Shown one piece after another: positions 24,116 to 64,000 of a stretch of DNA of 64,000 bases. The notes below the pieces were generated by a model. That model searched no databases, was not told the DNA's origin, and saw nothing but the letters and a program-made list of their open reading frames with translations. Position 1 is the first letter of the stretch; each line of letters opens with the position of its first letter. Origin of the DNA: an uncultured Prevotellaceae bacterium (lineage in GTDB: Bacteria > Bacteroidota > Bacteroidia > Bacteroidales > Bacteroidaceae); the NCBI GenBank assembly GCA_900320255.1, contig ONRS01000027.1:922-64921 (forward strand), in the 5' to 3' direction. Made by a program: the position numbers and the translations under genes.

Positions 24116-27100
24116 TCACCTGTCCCCGTGTTCCTTCATGTAATCGCGTGGTGACAGTCCGTAGAAGCGTTTGAAGATGGTGGAGAACGAGGCAGAGTTG
24201 TTAAATCCGCAGGCATACATGACCTCGGCTATGTTCATGTTGTTGTTGGCCAACAAGTGTGCGGCACGCTTCAGTCGGATGTTGCGAATGAAGTCATGCG
24301 GGGTCTGCCCGGTCAGTTCCTTCATCTTGCGGTGCAGGTGTACTCGGCTGATGCCCACCTCTTCGGCTATGCTGTCAACGCTGAGGTCGGAGTTAGAGAT
24401 GTTTTTGTTGATGACCACCATCACACGCTCCAACAGCTTGTCGTCAGGCGATTTCATGTCAATCCGCTCCACTTTCTCCTCCAGCAGGTCATTGCGGCTG
24501 TACTTCAGCCTGAGCATGCGGTGGGTATTGATAAGGTTGAGGATGGTTCGCCGCAGAATGTCCATGTTAAACGGCTTCATGATGTAGGCATCAGCACCGG
24601 TCTCCAGACCCTCCAGCTGGTCTTCATCGCGGCTCTTGGCCGTCAGCAGTACCACGGGAATGTGGCTGGTGGTAGGACTCGACTTGATTTTCGAGCAGAG
24701 CGTGTTGCCGTCCATTTCTGGCATCATGATGTCGGAGATGACCAAGTCAGGCAGTGAGCGCAGCACTTCTGCCAGTCCCTCGCGTCCGTTGGTGCAGGTG
24801 GCCACGTCGTAGTCACCCTGCAGTTCGTCGGCCAGAAAGTCACGAATCTCTGAGTCGTCTTCAACAATGACTATTCGCTGACGCTTGCTGGGAGAAGCCT
24901 CCCCCAGTGGGGGGAGGTTGGAGGGGGCTGCTTCCAGTGGGGGGAGGTTGGAGGGGGCTGTTGCTCCTTCCGCTATCTCGCTTTCCTTTAGGTGTTCCTT
25001 ACCGAGCGGAATGGTTACCACGAACTCACAGCCGTGACCGTCGGCGTTATTGTGGGCCTGAATGGTGCCGTGGTGCAGCTCTACCAGCGAACGGGTAAGG
25101 TCGAGCCCGATGCCTGTACCTACATTACGGTCGTTGACAGATGTGGCCGACTGGTAGAAACGCTCAAAGATACGGTCCAGCTTATCCTCGGGAATGGTCT
25201 CTCCGTTGTCATATATGGCAATGCGGACCTGTTGGTCGTCGTGAGTGAGCAGAATGCGTATAATACCGCCCGGAGGTGTGAATTTGAAGGCATTGGAAAG
25301 AATGTTGACAATGACCTTGTCGAAGTTGCCGCGGTCAATCCAGACGGGCAGCTCCTTGGCATCGTGTTCGTATGCAAACTGAATGTTCTTGACGCGGGCC
25401 TGCTGTTCGAAGAGCGTATGTATGTCGCCCACAAAGCCGATGATGTCAGTCTCACACATGCGCATCTGCATCTGTCCCTTGTCAATTTTGCGCAGGTCCA
25501 TCATTTGGTTAATGAGTCCCAGTATGCGCTCAGCGTTACGGCGTATCGTCTCGTAGATACTCCGGCGCTGCGGGTCGTCGTCCTGTTTGATGAGCGAGAG
25601 CAATGGTGTGACAATCAGTGTCATAGGTGTGCGAATCTCATGGCTGATGTTCATGAAGAATCGCAGCTTGGCATCGGCCATTTCCTCTGCGTGTATGTGT
25701 TCCTGCAGGCGCAGGCGGTCTTGTTCTTTGCGGCGGCGATAGGCCAGGTAGAGCCATACGGCACCCAGCAACAGTAATACATATATAATGTATGCTACGG
25801 TGGAGCGGTACCAGGGGGCATGAATGACCACCGTGAAGCAGCGTTCGGCCGTCTGTATGCCATTGCGCTCTGCCTTGACGCAGAAATGATAGGTGCCGGG
25901 GGGCAGATGGGTCAGGGTAATCTCGTTGATGCCCGGTTGCAGTCGTGAGAAGTCTTCGCCGTTAATCCTGTACAGATAGGTAATGTGTTCAGGGTTGTCG
26001 TATGTAAGTGTCGAGAACTGTATGGCAAAGGTGTTGTCATGATGAGCCAGTTCGAAACGGTCGGCGGCAATGGCTGTGGTGTCGCAGACCTGATAACCGT
26101 CGGAATAGGTGTCGCTGTTCACGCGCTTGTTGTTAATGGCAAAGGCAACCAGCGTCACCTTTGCGTCCCATTTTGCCTGCTGAATCTCTTCAGGACGGAA
26201 ATAGGTGATGCCGCCTACGCCGCCGAAAAGCATGACCACCCTTGTGCCACGGTCAACAGCCCATGATGCTCCGTCGCTAAACTCATTTGACTGTAAGCCA
26301 TTGTCAACGAAGAAGGTGCGTGTAAGGTCAGTCTTGGGGTCATAGCAGCACAGGCCGTGGTCAGTGGAAATCCAGAGTCGGCCCTCCTTGTCCTGCTCAA
26401 TGGAGGCAATCCCGTTTTCTGAGAGAGGAGCGGAGAGTGGTTTGGGTGTTGGGTGTTGGGTGCTGGGTGTTGGGTGTTGAGCGTTGTTCTCGTTGACGTT
26501 AACGTTATCGTTGACCTCCGTCCAGTAAAGCCCGTCATTAGTGCCTATCCATAGCTTGCCGTCGTATTCTTTGACTATTCGGCAGGGGGTGCCGTAGTTC
26601 AGGCAGTTCCTGCCGAAAGCGCTGGTCCAGCTGTCCTTGTCAATATCCAGACAGCATACGCCCATGGTGGTGGCCAGATAGATGCGCTTTTCGTCGGGCG
26701 ACAACGAAATCTTCGATATATAGTCATTGGTAATACTGTTCATTTGCGGGTGGTCAGGTGCTCCCTCCTTCATGGTGTAGGCCGTTTTCACCTGCAGCGT
26801 GTTAAGGTCAATGCGCAGCAGGCCCTGTCCCATTGTCGCCACCCAGAGGTCGCCCCCGTGGGGTGCCTCTATGTCGAGGGCGTTGGTCTGCAGGTACTGT
26901 GGGAACTGGTGGTAGGCCGTGGCATTGGCGTCAATGTAGCCGAAGCCTTCTGCCCAGGAGCCCACCCAGATGCGTCCCTCGCCGTCCTCCGCAATGCTCA
27001 TTATCGATGCGGGAAACGCGTCCTTGAAGTGCCTGATGGGGTGCTGGTCGGGGTCGAGCACGTACAGCCCGTCCTTGTCGGTTCCCACCCAGCATCGTCC

Positions 27101-57324: not shown

Positions 57325-57399
57325 TGAGCGTTGAGCGTTGAGTGTTGAGTGTTGACGTTGACGTTGTCGTTATCGTTGACGTTATCGTTATTAACGTTA
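57325..57399 (-). repeat. Hexamer then heptamer array directly after the receptor stop codon
   Basis: TGAGCGT x2, TGAGTGT x2, then CGTTGA/CGTTAT units on the + strand. Confidence 0.9.
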
Positions 57400-59853
57400 G
57401 AACTTATATCCTAAGGAGAGCATGAGCCAGCGGCCTTGCTGCCGGATAGGGCCTGAGCCGAGTCCGCACTGGGTGTAGCTCTTGTTGAAGAGGTTGTGGG
57501 CATTGAGTGCTACCTCGAAATTGCGGTAGGTGTAGGTGGCGCCTGCATCTACGAGGATGCGTGTGCTGTATTCGTCGAAGTGATAGGTGCCGTTGCTCAG
57601 GTCAACGCCGTAGCCCTGGTAGGGGCCGGTGAGGTTCAGGTGGGTGTGCAGTCGCAGGCTGGGCAGCAGGCGGTAGGCCAGTACGGCGTTGGCGCTGAAG
57701 TTGGGTATGCCGGGCATCTTGGTCAGCTCGCGTCCAAAGTATTCTGCCTCGAGGAAGTGTAGCCACTCCATGGCGAGGTGTCCTTCGAAGGGGCCGCGGC
57801 GGTAGGTGGCGGTGAGCTCGGCACCAATGTTCTTGCCCTCGGCGGCGTTGGCGTGCAGGTTCTGCAGGGGGTAGATAAGGTTTTGCGCGCGGTTATAAAA
57901 GCCGTTCAGCTCCAGGTCGAGTCCCGGCAGCAGGCTGCTGCTGCCTAAGGTGAGCTGCCAGGAGTAGAGCCGCTCTGACATGAGGTCGGTATAGTCGATG
58001 GTCGTAACGGGTGTCTCGCTGCCGATGGAGCTGATGACGTCGAGCTGGTAGAAGAGCAGGTTCGACTTGCGGTATAAATAGGGTGCATCGACGAACGACT
58101 TGGAGTAGCTGAGGGTGGCGTGCCACTTGGGCTGCACGAAGATGAGTGCCACGCGGGGTGAGAACTCGTGCTGCTCGTCGTCGTTGAAGCGGCGCTTGTA
58201 GTCGTAGCGCATGCCGCCGTTGAGGATGAACGGTCCGTAGCGGTGCTTGACTTGCACGTAGGCATTGACGCTGTTTTCTTTTCCCTTGGCTATGTTGTCA
58301 TAGTCGAGAGCTTCGTAGATGGTCTCGTCATCATACCCATAAGCACGGGCCCAGTTGGCAAACCATACGTACTCTATGATGGTGTTGAAGTAGTTGGTGC
58401 CTAAGGCGTAACGGGAGTCTTCGAGACGGAAATGGCTGTAGTTGGCGCCCATGCTGACCAGTCCCTTGTGGTCGTCGTTGTCAACGTAGGTGTAGTCGGC
58501 CTTCAGCTGGCCGCCAATGGTGCGCTCCTGTCCGTCCTGATAACGGAAGAGGCCCTCCTCGCCCTTGAAGAGTCCGTCGTAGTTCTTCAGGAAGCCGAGT
58601 ATGGAGCTCAGGTTCTCGACGGTGGAGTCGCTGATGACCTGATAGTGGGTCATGTCGCTGATGTCGTAGTTGATGGCGGCACTGAGGAAGAGCTTGTCCC
58701 ACTTCTTGCTGTAGGAGAGCTCGGCATGGTGCGACTGGGTGGCAAAGCTGGGCTTGAGGCCGCGGAAGGTGACGTAGCGGTCGTAGTTGTAGGGGGAGTA
58801 GGTGTAGCCGGAGGTGTAGGGTGAGTGAACCTGCGAGAAGTGGGTGTTGTACATGAAGTAGAGACCGCGCCAGTTGAGCGTCAGGCCGAGGTCGTAGGAG
58901 GGGTTTTCGCCTACGCGTCCGATGACGATGTCGCCTTGTGTGCGCTTCAGGCCTGTCTGCTCGCGGGGTACATAGAACTTTTGGCCGTCAGCCTTATAGA
59001 GACTGCCCCAGATGAGGATGTCGAGGTCGAAGAAGCGCTTGCCGAACACCAGGTCAGCGCGCATCTGGCCGTAGTTGCCTATTCCGGCACGCACCTTGAG
59101 GCCATCGACGTCGATGCCCTGTTTGGTGATGATGTTGACCACGGCAGTGAGTGCCACGCCGCCATAGAGCGACGAGGCAGGTCCGCGCAGCACTTCTATC
59201 TGCTTGATTTTCTCGAGCGAGATGCTGAAGTCGGGGGCGGCAGTGTTAGTGGCGTAGCTGTTCAGCCGGTGGCCGTTGATCATGAAGAGCATCTTCTCCT
59301 GTCCCTGGCTATAGACGCCGCGCATGGCGATGTTGATGTCGTCGTTACAGTCAATGTTGGTCATGCCGGGCACGTAGGCAATGAGCACCTCCTTGAGGTT
59401 GCGGGCTCCGCTGATGCGTATCATGTCGTCGGTGATGAGCAGCACGGGCACGGGCGACTCGTCGAGGCTCTCAGCCTGGCTGGAGGCGGTGGTGATGGTG
59501 TTGGTCATGCCGTTCTTCATGTGTGCCACCATGTCGAGGAAGCGTTGCGGGTCTTCAGACGTTGGGGTGAAATAGGGGTTTTCCGAGAGCAGCTCGCTGA
59601 CGTATCGTTGTGCCTCGTCGTCTTCGTCGAGGGCGATGTCGCAGAGTATGAGCAGCCTGTAGGCACTCTGCAGCAGGTCACCCTGGAAGTCGCTCAGGTG
59701 CTCCTTCAGCAGACTGCGCGAGTCGTCAAGACGGCCGATGATGTAGTCGTTCTCGGCCTGGGAATAGAGGCGGCGCTGCTCGTCGGCCGACTGTGCTGAA
59801 GCCAGCATGGTCACGAGGGCAAGGAGGGTGATGGTGAGGAGGAGTCGTTTCAT
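57397..59853 (-). CDS. TonB-dependent receptor with N-terminal helical (TPR-like) extension
   Basis: Signal peptide; about 90-aa helical segment; ITTASS; plug IEVLRGPASSLYG..VVNIITK; HNLFNKSY; terminal GYKF. Confidence 0.88.
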   Translation of the reverse strand: MKRLLLTITLLALVTMLASAQSADEQRRLYSQAENDYIIGRLDDSRSLLKEHLSDFQGDLLQSAYRLLILCDIALDEDDEAQRYVSELLSENPYFTPTSEDPQRFLDMVAHMKNGMTNTITTASSQAESLDESPVPVLLITDDMIRISGARNLKEVLIAYVPGMTNIDCNDDINIAMRGVYSQGQEKMLFMINGHRLNSYATNTAAPDFSISLEKIKQIEVLRGPASSLYGGVALTAVVNIITKQGIDVDGLKVRAGIGNYGQMRADLVFGKRFFDLDILIWGSLYKADGQKFYVPREQTGLKRTQGDIVIGRVGENPSYDLGLTLNWRGLYFMYNTHFSQVHSPYTSGYTYSPYNYDRYVTFRGLKPSFATQSHHAELSYSKKWDKLFLSAAINYDISDMTHYQVISDSTVENLSSILGFLKNYDGLFKGEEGLFRYQDGQERTIGGQLKADYTYVDNDDHKGLVSMGANYSHFRLEDSRYALGTNYFNTIIEYVWFANWARAYGYDDETIYEALDYDNIAKGKENSVNAYVQVKHRYGPFILNGGMRYDYKRRFNDDEQHEFSPRVALIFVQPKWHATLSYSKSFVDAPYLYRKSNLLFYQLDVISSIGSETPVTTIDYTDLMSERLYSWQLTLGSSSLLPGLDLELNGFYNRAQNLIYPLQNLHANAAEGKNIGAELTATYRRGPFEGHLAMEWLHFLEAEYFGRELTKMPGIPNFSANAVLAYRLLPSLRLHTHLNLTGPYQGYGVDLSNGTYHFDEYSTRILVDAGATYTYRNFEVALNAHNLFNKSYTQCGLGSGPIRQQGRWLMLSLGYKF

Positions 59854-60704
59854 GCTTTTACGGGAATGATAAAGGTGATGGTGGTGCCTTCGCCCACGGT
59901 GGAGTCAACGGTGAGGCGGCCCTGGTGGTGCTGTTCCACTATTTCGCGTGTGATGCCCATGCCCAGTCCGGTGCCCTTGCCGGCGGGCTTGGTGGTAAAG
60001 AAGTTCTCGAACAGCCGCTGCTGCACCTCGCTGTTCATGCCTTCGCCGTTGTCGGCAATGGCAATGGTGCACTTGTCGTCCTGAAGACTGACGCTGATAT
60101 CCACTTCGGGCGAATAGTCGGTAGCGGTCTGTGCCTTGTTCCACACGGCGTAGAAGGCGTTGTTCATGACGTTGAGCACGGCCCGGCTGAGTTCCTGGGG
60201 AATAATGGAGACCAGGGGCATGGACTCCTGGTAATGCTCATGAATGGTAATGTTGAAGCCTTTCTGGTTGGCGCGCATGGCGTGGTAGGACAGCCAGACG
60301 TACTCTTTCACCATTTGGGCTATGTTGGTGGGTATGCGCTCGCCTTCCTTGCCGCGTGAGATGAGCAGAATGCCGCGGATGATGCTGATGGCACGCTCGC
60401 CGTGCTCCATTATCTTCTGCATGTTCTCCTGCAGGTCGGCCACTATGTCGTCCAGCTCCTCACGGTCGTCGGCAGAGAGCTTGTCCTCGTTGTCGGCCAC
60501 AATGTCGCTCAGGTCGCTGAGCAGCTTGTCTGACATCTTACTGAAGTTGATGACAAAGTTGAGCGGGTTCTGTATCTCGTGGGCTATGCCTGCACTCAGC
60601 GTTCCTAAGGAGGCCAGCTTCTCTTGCTGCTTCAACTGCTGTCTCAGTTGCTCTATTTCCAGGTTTTTATTCTCTTCCATAAGCTCTTCTTTATTGTTTT
60701 TCAA
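59850..60704 (-). CDS. Sensor-less cytoplasmic histidine kinase (NtrB-like HisKA plus HATPase)
   Basis: EKLASLGTLSAGIAHEIQNPLNF, NVMNNAFYA, DNGEGM, FFTTK..GKGTGLG; no TM and no input domain. Confidence 0.9.
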   Translation of the reverse strand: MKNNKEELMEENKNLEIEQLRQQLKQQEKLASLGTLSAGIAHEIQNPLNFVINFSKMSDKLLSDLSDIVADNEDKLSADDREELDDIVADLQENMQKIMEHGERAISIIRGILLISRGKEGERIPTNIAQMVKEYVWLSYHAMRANQKGFNITIHEHYQESMPLVSIIPQELSRAVLNVMNNAFYAVWNKAQTATDYSPEVDISVSLQDDKCTIAIADNGEGMNSEVQQRLFENFFTTKPAGKGTGLGMGITREIVEQHHQGRLTVDSTVGEGTTITFIIPVKA

Positions 60705-63543
60705 GTAGTGGAATAACTATATCAAACTCAGTAAACTGATTTTTCTCGGAGTTGACGGTGATGCTGCCCCTGTGGTTCTGCACTATTTCGTGGCTCAGGT
60801 ACAGGCCAATGCCCGAAGCCTCGCCAGTGGTCTTCGTGGTGAAGAAGGGGTCGAAGATTTTGTCAAGGATGCCACTCTCGATGCCGATGCCGTTGTCGTG
60901 CACCTTTATCACCACGTTATTGTTTTCGGTGTGTGCCGAGAGACGTATCTCGGGCTGATGGTCGGGCACGCGTTTCTTCTGCTTGACGACGGCATAGATG
61001 CCGTTGCCCAGCAGGCTCATGACGGTCTTGCTGAGCTGGTCGGCATTACCATTGATGCTGATGAGCTCGGAAGGACAGTCGAACACAGTCTTGATGTGAC
61101 ATTCTTCTATTTCCTTCTGGTAGTACTGATTGAGCATTTCGAAGTTCTTCTGGAGCATGGTGACGATGTTCATGGGCACCATGCCGCCCGAGCGGTCCTT
61201 GAGCATCTCCTCCATGGCCTTCAGCGTGCGCGAGGTGTTAATGCCGTGCTGCTCCACCTTGGCCAGGTTCTGCGTCAGCATGTCGAGCACGTCCATGGTG
61301 TCGTCGTAGTTCTCCGGGTCCATGTGTTCCTGCTCGTCCTCGATGTTGGCCTTCACGTCCTTGATGAGTCCCGACGAGAGCTTCGAGAAGTTGTTGATGT
61401 AGTTCATGGGGTTCAGGATGCGGTCAATGAGGCCCTGCGTCAGCTTACCGACGGTGGCCATCTTCTCCTGGTGCATCAGCTCGTCCTTCTGCTTGGCTAT
61501 TTCGGCCGTACGATCCTGTACCACCCGTTCCAGGCGCAGCTTGTCCTGCTCCAGCGAATGGGTGCGCCAGCGGGCAATGGCATAGGTGATGAGTGCTGCC
61601 AGCAGTGCAAAGAGCAGCAGCATGTACCAGCGCATGTAGAAGGGAGCGGGAATGCTGAAGTCGAACGACACGATGTTCGACAGGCGCCCCATGGGGTCGC
61701 AGGCTTGTATCTCCATGGTGTAGGCTCCCGAGGCCATGTTGAAGAAGCGTACGAAGGTCTGTTCGCTCCAGGCTGACCAGGTGCCGTCGTTCAGGCGGTA
61801 GCGGTAGGTGGCGTTTCCCACCAGCGGGGCATAGTCGATGGCGTAGCTGATGCGCAGCTCGCCGTAGTTGCTGTCGAGGGTGCCGAGCTCCTTGGGCTGT
61901 TCGCCTATGCCTCCCCATAACAGGCTGTCGCCCTGCATGGTGATGCTACGCAGGAAGAGCTGCGGCTTATGCCTGAGCATGGGGTCGGCAATGCTTCGCT
62001 TAATGCCAATGAGGCCGAAGTCGCCGCCTACCCACAGTTGTGAATTCATTCTCAGGATGGCCCGTACCACATAGTCCTTCAGCGGGGTGATATAGACTTC
62101 GTGCTCCTGGGCCAGCTGCTCGTGGCGTACCACTTTCAGCTCATGCCCTTCGGCATCGGTCACCCAGATGTTTCCCTCGAAGTCGGTATAGGAATATGAC
62201 GGATAGGGTATGAGGGCTTTCATCTTCTCGCCGGCCGACACCAGCTTGTGACCGTCCCACCGCCAGATGCCGTTGATGTTGGCAACCAGCACCTCGCGCT
62301 CGCCGCGGATGAGGGTGTTCACATCGTCCTCTTTCTTATTTGTATCCAGTGAGCGGAAGTTCTGCTCGTCAGCCGGTTTTAACCAGATGTCACCGTAGAG
62401 GTTCTGTGCCCAGATGTCGCCGTCCTTGTCCTGAAACATCCGAACCACTTTCTCGGCATTGGAAGCCTCGGAACGGAAATTGTCCTTATAATAGAACAGA
62501 CCGTCCAACTCGCCGCTGTAGTAACCGTCGTCATCAGGCAGGACGGCGGTGGCACTGGCCGTTGACAACTGGCGCGTGCTGCCGTCGGCAAAGACCCGGA
62601 AGACACCGCCCATGGTGGCTGCCAGCAGGCTGTTGCCGTCTGGCTCCAGGTTCCAGCAGGCGTGCTTAATCTCGCTGACTGGGACAAATGACTGCCCTAC
62701 GCGGCGGAACAGTCCGCTGAGGGTGCCTACAAAGAGATTTTCCTCAATGGCTTGTATGGCGAGCACTTCACCGCGAAGTCCTTCGCCTGACGTGAAGCGT
62801 GAATAGATGGAGGGCAGGGAAACGGCAAAGATGCCATTGTCAGTAACGCCCCACAGCATGCCGTGGGAGTCGTAGGCTATGTGGTTCACATTATTATTGC
62901 ACAGCCCGCTCTCCTCGGTCAGCTGGAAGATTTTTCGGCCTTGACCGTCAACAGCCAACAGTCCCTGACTGGTTAAAGCGACTACCTGTAGGTCATTGTT
63001 GATGCGGATGACTTCGTTCACTTCGTAGTCTTCACTCAACTGAATGTTTTTCTTGTCAGGGGGCAAGGCTCCTACAGGAACCAATTTGTCGCCCTGTACA
63101 CAATAGACGCTGTGGTCGGAAATCTCCAGGCAAATGCTGCCGCTGGCATCTTGCCAGATTTCCTCTACTTGTCCGTGGAAGGGCACGTCGTTACTGGGTA
63201 GCAGGTCCTTAATGCCCAGACTGCCGTTCTTCTCATGGACCAGATAGCCTATGTAGTTGTAGCCGCCTACCCAGATATGGCCTTTCTTGTCGTTGAAGAG
63301 TGCCGTCAGCCGGTGGATGCCTTTTGTGTGGAGGACATGCCACGCTGCCTGGTCGAAGTAGAGCAGACCCTCGAAGTTGGCGATAAATACCTGCCCGTTG
63401 TCTCCGCAGATAATGTCGAAGTTCCGGTTGTGTGCCCCATACTCCTGGGCACTGTAGTTGCGCATGAAGGGTACACCCCTCTGGGCCATCAAGGGAATAA
63501 TGGCGGAAAGCACCAACAGATATGTGATAATAAGCCTCTTCAT
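60691..63543 (-). CDS. Membrane sensor with beta-propeller/Y_Y_Y input and a kinase domain lacking the phospho-His (pseudokinase)
   Basis: Signal peptide, propeller repeats, YRYRL..WSAWS, TM; H-box reads GLIDRILNP; DNGIGI, FDPFFTTK, GEASGIGL. Confidence 0.85.
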   Translation of the reverse strand: MKRLIITYLLVLSAIIPLMAQRGVPFMRNYSAQEYGAHNRNFDIICGDNGQVFIANFEGLLYFDQAAWHVLHTKGIHRLTALFNDKKGHIWVGGYNYIGYLVHEKNGSLGIKDLLPSNDVPFHGQVEEIWQDASGSICLEISDHSVYCVQGDKLVPVGALPPDKKNIQLSEDYEVNEVIRINNDLQVVALTSQGLLAVDGQGRKIFQLTEESGLCNNNVNHIAYDSHGMLWGVTDNGIFAVSLPSIYSRFTSGEGLRGEVLAIQAIEENLFVGTLSGLFRRVGQSFVPVSEIKHACWNLEPDGNSLLAATMGGVFRVFADGSTRQLSTASATAVLPDDDGYYSGELDGLFYYKDNFRSEASNAEKVVRMFQDKDGDIWAQNLYGDIWLKPADEQNFRSLDTNKKEDDVNTLIRGEREVLVANINGIWRWDGHKLVSAGEKMKALIPYPSYSYTDFEGNIWVTDAEGHELKVVRHEQLAQEHEVYITPLKDYVVRAILRMNSQLWVGGDFGLIGIKRSIADPMLRHKPQLFLRSITMQGDSLLWGGIGEQPKELGTLDSNYGELRISYAIDYAPLVGNATYRYRLNDGTWSAWSEQTFVRFFNMASGAYTMEIQACDPMGRLSNIVSFDFSIPAPFYMRWYMLLLFALLAALITYAIARWRTHSLEQDKLRLERVVQDRTAEIAKQKDELMHQEKMATVGKLTQGLIDRILNPMNYINNFSKLSSGLIKDVKANIEDEQEHMDPENYDDTMDVLDMLTQNLAKVEQHGINTSRTLKAMEEMLKDRSGGMVPMNIVTMLQKNFEMLNQYYQKEIEECHIKTVFDCPSELISINGNADQLSKTVMSLLGNGIYAVVKQKKRVPDHQPEIRLSAHTENNNVVIKVHDNGIGIESGILDKIFDPFFTTKTTGEASGIGLYLSHEIVQNHRGSITVNSEKNQFTEFDIVIPLLEKQ

Positions 63544-63554
63544 CAGCGTGCGGG

Positions 63555-64000
63555 TTACGGTTTAAATTTTACGTACGGGACGTTGTCGCCTATGTATTGT
63601 GACCATTCCTCACGGGTCAGGTTCCTCTTCAGTGACAGTCTGATAAGTGAGGCCATCTGTTCGGCATCAATCAGGGTGCGGGTCAGGTTGCCGCTCTGGT
63701 CACCAGTCCAGATGGAGTTCATTCGTTTTTCGAGAGAGAAGCTGATGACCCAGCGGTTGGTGGTCAGCACACGTATGGGGTCTGCCTTCTCGTGGCTGAC
63801 GTCCCAGACGTTGACAGTACCGTCATAGCTGGTGGAGTAAAGACGGTTGTCGTCGAATTTCAGGCGTGAAATGCGGGAGCGATGTGCTACCAGCTTACGT
63901 TGCTTGCCGTTCTTGTCAACCAGATAGATAACGCCGTCGGCCATGCCATAGGCCATCGCCGCCGTCTTTTCAGAGTGGGTGCAAGTGGTGACCTGCCCGT
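63555..64000 (-). CDS. C-terminus of a WD40-repeat protein (partial; probably STAND NTPase-WD40 type)
   Basis: Frame is open to the window edge; AHRSRISRLKF..STSYDGTVNVWD; terminal RNLTREEWSQY motif. Confidence 0.78.
   Translation of the reverse strand, partial: GQVTTCTHSEKTAAMAYGMADGVIYLVDKNGKQRKLVAHRSRISRLKFDDNRLYSTSYDGTVNVWDVSHEKADPIRVLTTNRWVISFSLEKRMNSIWTGDQSGNLTRTLIDAEQMASLIRLSLKRNLTREEWSQYIGDNVPYVKFKP

Follow-up and report, generated by a model that had tools for sequence, protein, structure and literature searches.

A 64,000-nucleotide (nt) stretch of DNA from an uncultured Prevotellaceae bacterium (assembly GCA_900320255.1, contig ONRS01000027.1, positions 922 to 64,921; hereafter the window) carries two neighboring genes that divide a histidine kinase between two paralogous chains, namely a membrane sensor that lacks the phospho-acceptor His and a small kinase that has the His but no sensor. 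This split is conserved, the residues lost by the two chains are complementary, a regulator gene lies in the same operon, and several sensors can accompany a single kinase. Based on comparisons of sequence, we give about an even chance to a push-pull circuit in which the sensor would act as a regulated phosphatase that opposes a shared small kinase.

An earlier note, made from the letters of the window alone, had described the genes as adjacent, overlapping paralogs that align through the H-box, and had proposed that their products form an obligate heterodimer. We verified both key codons: codon 61423–61425 is GAC and encodes Asp707 of the 950-amino acid (aa) open reading frame of the sensor, and codon 60579–60581 is CAC and encodes His42 of the 284-aa reading frame of the small kinase (Table 1). 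The proteins indeed align, with 27% identity over 291 residues (E value 4e-41) and with His42-Glu43 opposite Asp707-Arg708. The sensor is composed of a signal-like N terminus, a beta-propeller/Y_Y_Y ectodomain, one membrane helix, an S-helix, an Asp-Arg DHp domain, and HATPase_c. Its Pfam matches are Reg_prop, HATPase_c, and, weakly and below the cut-off, Y_Y_Y, and no Pfam match to HisKA was obtained. The N box (SLLGNG versus NVMNNA in the kinase) and the G2 box (GEASG versus GKGTG) are altered as the note had reported, and the second N-box Asn, the D-x-G-x-G motif, and the F box are kept. The small kinase, which yields Pfam matches to HisKA and HATPase_c and no membrane helix by hydropathy scan, consists of a short heptad helix, a His-Glu H-box, and canonical N, G1, and G2 boxes, and is an intact kinase without an input domain. 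The adjacency of the genes stands, but their 14-nt overlap exists only with a TTG start for the kinase. An ATG at 60680, 11 nt past the sensor's stop, fits the relatives better, whose small kinases start at a median of 29 residues before the His.

The small kinase carries the sequence features of an active HisKA kinase, a His-Glu H-box with intact N, G1, F, and G2 boxes; its F-box Pro is usually replaced (65% Asn). The sensor has Asp-Arg, in 102 of 102 sequences, in place of a phospho-acceptor His followed by an acidic residue, and represents a pseudo-histidine kinase in that it has a kinase fold without the catalytic residue, yet is kept by selection.

The altered H-box is a property of a family rather than of one strain. 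Its Asp, its Arg, the Asn at +4 (counted from the His position), and the Pro at +5 are invariant in all 102 aligned relatives. In a family-level sample, 15 of 300 genomes match in addition to the source genome, and all 16 have Asp-Arg. The best 150 clusters in a 50%-identity library comprise 106 with Asp-Arg, 37 with His-Glu, and seven that were not parsed. The ratio of nonsynonymous to synonymous substitutions (dN/dS) is 0.088 for the cytoplasmic part of the sensor and 0.084 for the kinase, and 0.007 and 0.010, respectively, around the H-box, as estimated from 16 of 21 independent close pairs with unsaturated synonymous sites. In a first tree, in which the outgroup had joined a long branch, 38 of 38 Asp-Arg rows formed one group with support 100. 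For a second tree we removed the outgroup, masked both H-box residues, and used 73 of the 135 rows that were left; it again gave support 100 for the Asp-Arg group and placed the linked small kinases in a group of their own (support 85). The earlier note had allowed for strain-specific decay or a sequencing error. Because Asp-Arg is invariant, under purifying selection at a level like that of the partner, and confined to one clade, we rule out a decaying or mis-sequenced gene.

This clade spans Bacteroidota. Among named records, carriers of Asp-Arg belong to Prevotellaceae, Tannerellaceae, and Dyadobacter, with further proteins from Runella (Runella sp. NBB20510.1) and Nibrella (Nibrella viscosa WP_345269629.1), and about one-fifth of the sampled genomes in the window's genus carry the family. 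A scan of 1/64 of the genome contig collection returned at least five Asp-Arg loci. A DNA pattern search at the phylum level matched 14 of 400 other genomes, which were not used as a carrier count; two hold confirmed Asp-Arg kinases (G1060, with three copies, and G1030).

Genome comparisons strongly support a functional pairing of sensor and small kinase; a lack of conserved pairing, which the earlier note named as a refutation, is contradicted by them. In the 16 family-level genomes, the small kinase lies directly behind the sensor in 14, and in the other two it follows the receiver-PP2C gene described below, at a distance of 1.3 kb and on the opposite strand. At the order level, 41 of 401 genomes match, and the best 30 loci, which were inspected, comprise 13 with Asp-Arg and 17 with His-Glu; one of 17 further places without an inspected locus later proved to be a second Asp-Arg copy. 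All 13 Asp-Arg genomes own a sensor-less His kinase, adjacent in 10 and on other contigs in three. At the genus level, 87 of 401 genomes match and 81 of the 87 have both genes, a count that takes 38 unlisted low-scoring matches as small kinases from their score order. The six exceptions are 80 to 89% complete. In four of them a match lies at the end of a contig, a fifth combines a frameshifted sensor with an intact kinase next to it, and the lone sensor of G1268 is unexplained. From metagenomes we recovered 130 loci with 99 distinct proteins, of which 40 were incomplete. For the remaining 59, the next gene is the small kinase in 49, a second Asp-Arg protein in four, and the receptor directly in three, and the remainder are two broken loci and one too short to judge. 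At one locus (L450:8706-11634, genome G1312), an Asp-Arg sensor with a frameshift, which may be a true loss or an assembly error, adjoins an intact small kinase.

Where the sensor keeps its His, the second kinase is missing in seven of seven loci with a related gene context (L157–L161, L163, and L164). However, genomes G443 and G531 have a sensor-less kinase without an Asp-Arg protein, which weighs against a perfect pairing rule. In both (L162 and L211), this kinase adjoins a receiver-PP2C gene and the large sensor keeps its His. The two genomes fall in a different His-sensor clade. Their sensor-less kinases are of a second, independent kind and possibly represent a similar split at a less advanced stage.

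Comparison of 102 sensor/kinase pairs with 61 His-bearing sensors established which residues each chain has kept. The sensor has lost the His, Glu+1, and Arg+62, and in most rows its first N-box Asn is replaced (Ser in 78%), as is its first G2 Gly (Ala in 86%). These five residues are conserved at 98 to 100% in both His groups, and the ATP domain of distant Asp-Arg members is still canonical. The small kinase retains the His, Glu+1, Arg+62, both N-box Asn residues, and all G-box Gly residues. Kept in the sensor are Asn+4, Asn+7, and Asn+11 (100%), Phe+12 (99%), and Pro+5, together with the second N-box Asn, the D-x-G-x-G motif, and the F box. On the docking face, +7, +11, and +12 are identical in the two chains, whereas +8 is Tyr in the sensor versus Phe in the kinase, +3 is Leu versus Gln, and +10 is Asn versus Ile.

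These losses match a division of labor known from CrdS, which has a near-identical H-box (L-A-H-E-I-K-N-P-L; PMC3510030). CrdS variants H371A and E372A stay competent as phosphatases (half-lives of 2.6 and 0.4 min versus 53.5 min without enzyme) and N375A is dead as a phosphatase (47.6 min), so that kinase activity alone depends on the His and Glu+1, and phosphatase activity alone on Asn+4 (PMC3510030). The Thr or Asn at His+4 by which HisKA-type phosphatases are recognized (PMC3510030) is Asn in 102 of 102 sensors. CheZ and NarX use an acid-x-x-x-amide motif (PMC3510030), and we infer that the D-x-x-x-N of the sensor has the same spacing. DivL requires positions +7 and +12 to bind its regulator (PMC4211667). 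Had function simply been lost, the His position should vary among relatives; the invariance of Asp-Arg suggests that it has acquired a new role where the receiver is contacted. The His-less chain, to which the earlier note gave the sensing role, appears to keep a determinant of phosphatase activity and could itself act on the regulator.

A regulator is available. The earlier note had found no adjacent response regulator, which holds within the window but not on the contig, where a gene for a receiver-SpoIIE/PP2C protein lies two genes upstream of the pair on the same strand, directly upstream of a WD40-like gene. The acidic pocket, Asp, Ser, and Lys of its receiver are all intact, and tblastn found only this one receiver-PP2C of the operon's family in the source genome. 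STAS and RsbW-like genes often neighbor these operons across genomes, and the source genome has three RsbW-like/STAS pairs elsewhere (G000:C13:28544-36198, C126:12724-14186, and C67:11868-12652), two adjoining PP2C genes and one adjoining peptide-synthetase-like genes. These pairs are possible outputs of the system, and the components of a partner-switch input, a receiver-PP2C regulator with STAS and RsbW-like proteins, are all present.

The number of sensors per kinase is also informative. The expectation of one partner gene per sensor gene fails, since 15 of the 87 genus-level carriers have two or three Asp-Arg sensors and one small kinase. Among 20 fetched regions, most of which were selected because of second copies, 14 have a sensor but no kinase, and 11 of those 14 have their own receiver-PP2C gene. 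Kinases separated from the sensor adjoin receiver-PP2C in G114/G066, G313, and G334, and not in G436. Members of the Tannerellaceae type are about 380 aa long, have two short hydrophobic helices but lack an ectodomain, and occur in tandem before one kinase. In a domain scan of 31 of the 106 Asp-Arg proteins, picked for varied length, three carry HAMP, and other members have TPR or TPR-GAF inputs. HAMP forms homodimeric bundles, and therefore these members imply sensor homodimers. Collectively, the multiple sensors per kinase, the satellite operons without a kinase, the HAMP sensors, and the separated kinases near the regulator weaken an obligate 1:1 heterodimer, and of the earlier proposal it is the functional pairing that survives. 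Main and satellite operons differ in helix 1 of the receiver, but this is a single lineage event and was not used as evidence.

Other arrangements were also encountered. Asp-Arg proteins of about 380 aa, some in tandem, lie near STAS and RsbW-like genes at L146–L148, L024, and L251. Genome G1060 (L222–L224) has only one small kinase alongside three Asp-Arg proteins and 14 larger kinases from this family, and one of its Asp-Arg genes ends an array of His-bearing sensors. P0079 is a 2084-aa fusion of a HEAT-repeat protein and an Asp-Arg sensor.

In the push-pull circuit that we favor, an ancestral two-function sensor kinase would have been split between two genes. The small kinase, with all kinase residues retained, is predicted to autophosphorylate and to transfer the phosphate to the receiver-PP2C protein, and the His-less sensor is predicted to dock the same receiver and to dephosphorylate it under the control of a signal. 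The sensor is probably a homodimer and would toggle between phosphatase-on and phosphatase-off states as a signal, perhaps relayed from the TonB-type receptor and the WD40 protein, enters via the ectodomain, and the invariant Asp-Arg with Asn+4 would form the phosphatase site. The level of receiver phosphorylation would set PP2C activity toward STAS/RsbW-like partner-switch proteins. In this way, one kinase could serve several pairs of sensor and regulator. We extend this only tentatively, and with rather less confidence, to a phylum-wide class of sensor-phosphatases in which the HisKA helix would have been rebuilt as a CheZ-like Asp-x-x-x-Asn site with a phosphate-binding Arg. Inputs would be interchangeable (propeller, TPR, GAF, HAMP, or bare two-helix anchors), with several sensors connected to a single sensor-less kinase, perhaps in the form of a two-faced heterodimer (see below).

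Several observations weigh against the push-pull circuit. The genes are tightly coupled, with the kinase ATG lying between −10 and +19 nt relative to the stop codon of the sensor in 76 of 93 pairs. Asn+4 is equally invariant in small kinases and His-bearing sensors and may be structural; given that it is invariant in all three groups, it cannot alone separate the models, and a purely constitutive kinase should not need it. At docking position +3, the sensor has Leu in place of Gln. DivL is described as binding its regulator without having phosphatase activity (PMC4211667), and therefore a kept docking face does not prove catalysis. Moreover, the helix of the small kinase is about two heptads long and in register with the S-helix of the sensor. 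In simulations of LvrB, helices of fewer than three heptads relax to an inactive state (PMC13269768), as would be expected if the kinase depended on the helix of a partner.

A serious alternative, although less probable than push-pull, is the heterodimer of the earlier note, pictured as a four-helix bundle in which the S-helix of the sensor pairs with the short helix of the kinase and switches its cis-autophosphorylation, with Asp-Arg passive and the small kinase serving as a shared catalytic subunit. Consistent with this are the strict co-occurrence and tight coupling of the genes, the hydrophobic heptad residues at −25, −22, and −18 of the small kinase (94 to 98% conserved and in register with the sensor helix), the Asn+4 that this kinase retains, and the similar groupings of the sensor and small-kinase lineages in the tree. 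In LvrB, the closest solved relative, S-helix pairing controls activity and autophosphorylation is judged likely to occur in cis (PMC13269768), and so the degenerate ATP domain of the sensor need not be catalytic. However, a heterodimer leaves the invariant Asp-Arg and the apparently kept receiver-docking face of the sensor unexplained, satellite operons lose the kinase and retain the regulator, and the HAMP-bearing members point to sensor homodimers. A version acting in trans, with the ATP domain of the sensor phosphorylating its partner, is disfavored in Bacteroidales, where a G2 Gly and the first N-box Asn, which we take to be the equivalent of EnvZ N343, are changed. Mutation of N343 abolishes the kinase activity of EnvZ (PMC8971529). 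A predicted complex of two sensor cytoplasmic parts and one small kinase, built with the 102-row alignments, scored 0.09 against a mark of 0.32 and weighs neither way. Inter-protein coupling across 102 pairs (effectively 74, too few sequences) gave top pairs that are 12 to 30% bundle-compatible versus a 17% background, within the permuted range.

A two-faced heterodimer, in which a His face acts as kinase, an Asp-Arg face acts as phosphatase, and the sensor toggles between them, would cover the heptad stub, the gene coupling, the invariant Asp-Arg, Asn+4, and the docking face together. We consider it improbable, since it requires both unproven steps and is no improvement over the plain heterodimer in accounting for the satellite, tandem, and HAMP cases. 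Marginally less probable again is a sensor that binds or inhibits without catalysis, either by shielding the phosphorylated receiver in the manner of DivL or by blocking the kinase in a regulated, non-obligate heterocomplex in the manner of RetS. DivL is a precedent for a His-less kinase that binds a phosphorylated regulator without hydrolysis (PMC4211667), RetS-GacS inhibition is documented (PMC12189002), and the invariant Arg could bind phosphate; against this, the ectodomain and membrane helix suggest outside-in signaling, and the phosphatase Asn is invariant. Finally, it is very improbable either that the Asp is itself the phospho-acceptor, given that the general-base Glu is replaced by Arg, even though the chemistry of Asp would permit a phosphate and the ATP domain is canonical in distant members, or that the sensor is decaying or mis-sequenced, which the frameshifted copy in G1312 might suggest and which the invariance, dN/dS, and single clade exclude.

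The operon is a five-gene cluster in the order receiver-PP2C, WD40-like, sensor, small kinase, and TonB-type receptor (Table 1). Numbered on the contig beyond the window, the receiver-PP2C and WD40-like genes are L020:10054-11220 and L020:8477-10039. The 520-aa WD40-like protein has an N-terminal hydrophobic stretch, a charged helical region, and a WD40-like propeller. Among mapped loci, the receiver-PP2C cluster is a neighbor in 30, the TonB-type receptor in 29, and the WD40-like protein in 25. This stretch is held by 13 RNA-labeled runs from five studies. Single contigs span the receptor, kinase, and sensor in two of the four runs examined, contigs that show neither transcription nor one transcript.

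Table 1. Features of the split kinase locus (window coordinates unless indicated otherwise).
Feature	Position	Strand	Basis or remark
His-less membrane sensor, 950 aa	60691..63543	(-)	Pfam and hydropathy
Predicted membrane helix of the sensor, aa 639-657	61573..61629	(-)	Hydropathy scan
Altered H-box D-R-I-L-N-P of the sensor; Asp and Arg replace His and Glu, Asn at +4 kept	61408..61425	(-)	
ATP-binding motifs of the sensor; first N-box Asn changed to Ser, first G2 Gly changed to Ala	60805..61017	(-)	
Sensor-less intact histidine kinase, 284 aa from TTG or 276 aa from ATG at 60680	59850..60704	(-)	
Phospho-acceptor His codon of the small kinase	60579..60581	(-)	His invariant in 102/102
TonB-dependent receptor-like protein; overlaps the stop of the small kinase, usual operon member	57397..59853	(-)	Pfam Plug
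C-terminal part of the 520-aa WD40-like protein; runs past the window edge	63555..64000	(-)	
Receiver + SpoIIE/PP2C gene, 388 aa	G000:C107:66053-67219 (outside the window)	same	Likely target of both chains

Additional features were observed around these operons. Short tandem GACGTT-type repeats follow the receptor gene (window 57325-57390) and recur on numerous unrelated contigs from the RNA runs. A further kinase, which has a receiver-like region and lies at window positions of about 24480-25370, was matched by tblastn and is only distant kin of this family. The gene upstream of the operon has a repeated C terminus rich in Arg, Glu, Gly, and Pro (L020:11367-11552) and is truncated by the contig end. 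A peptide-synthetase-like gene comes right after the receptor in several operons (L100, L102, L106, L109, L110, L444, and L452), and glgX-like, epimerase-like, and DJ-1 genes lie upstream in others (L102, L103, L105, and L448).

Parts of this arrangement have precedents. DivL from Caulobacter is likewise a HisKA-type protein with a conserved replacement of the His, and it keeps a regulator-docking face, as the sensor appears to do; DivJ and PleC form a kinase/phosphatase push-pull on one regulator, as in the proposed circuit (PMC4211667). However, DivL has Tyr at the His position, is reported in the cited text to be without phosphatase activity, receives PAS inputs, and controls the hybrid kinase CckA (PMC4211667), whereas the sensor has Asp-Arg and an extracytoplasmic input. 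The Tyr that marks the DivL family is Asp in the sensor, and the partner here, unlike that of DivL, is a paralogous sensor-less kinase encoded next door. PhyP from Sphingomonas melonis, a degenerate kinase proposed to be the phosphatase of the partner-switch regulator PhyR, resembles our model of the sensor, and its ortholog PhyK has a putative periplasmic sensing domain and needs its His (PMC5964349). In PhyP it is the ATP domain that is described as degenerate (PMC5964349), whereas here the His is lost and the ATP domain is kept; the family and the regulator also differ. RetS-GacS (PMC12189002) and ChrS-HrrS (PMC9491836) each join two kinase-family proteins on one output, as is proposed for the pair here, and heterodimers are reported for them. 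In the cited accounts both partners are membrane sensors with their own inputs and a sensor-less dedicated partner does not appear, and the ChrS pseudokinase is a laboratory-evolved truncation (PMC9491836). LvrB from Leptospira, the best structural relative of the small kinase (PDB 8vc9, E value 9e-36), has a similar S-helix heptad and signals to an anti-sigma-type partner switch, but it is described as a homodimer under its own receiver domain, with no His-less partner in that description (PMC13269768). An engineered EnvZ kinase/phosphatase pair (PMC8971529) is a comparable case. None of DivL, PhyP, RetS-GacS, ChrS-HrrS, and the EnvZ pair has a His-less sensor with a dedicated sensor-less paralog.

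In Bacillus cereus, RsbK, RsbY (a receiver-PP2C protein), RsbV, and RsbW connect a kinase through a receiver-PP2C to a STAS/anti-sigma-like output, as the architecture here is predicted to do, and RsbK is one intact hybrid kinase, unlike the split pair. Bacteroides hybrid two-component sensors hold an intact kinase, a receiver, and a DNA-binding domain in one chain, whereas none of these three follows in the sensor. With these hybrids the sensor shares a Reg_prop/Y_Y_Y ectodomain, as judged from weak matches to PDB 3v9f (E value 6e-5) and 4a2l (E value 0.002), and a single membrane helix. Caulobacter HmrABCX was considered as a related system and is unrelated.

In searches of the open literature, we found no description of this split sensor/kinase family. 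The family is hidden in annotation because its proteins are labeled as ordinary kinases or ATP-binding proteins. HisKA domains without the His make up 0.9% of a sampled set (PMC12632262), and pseudo-histidine kinases are rare, with few of known role. The conserved pair is real, and its mechanism lies between two testable models, push-pull and heterodimer. If the phosphatase-class reading is true, the system would be a natural split of a bifunctional kinase, with the unsplit ancestor surviving in the same operon. Because this large conserved family comes with its own dedicated partner and cognate regulator, and its unsplit ancestor survives, it allows a direct test of the separation of kinase and phosphatase functions after duplication, and of transmembrane signaling by kinase heterodimers.

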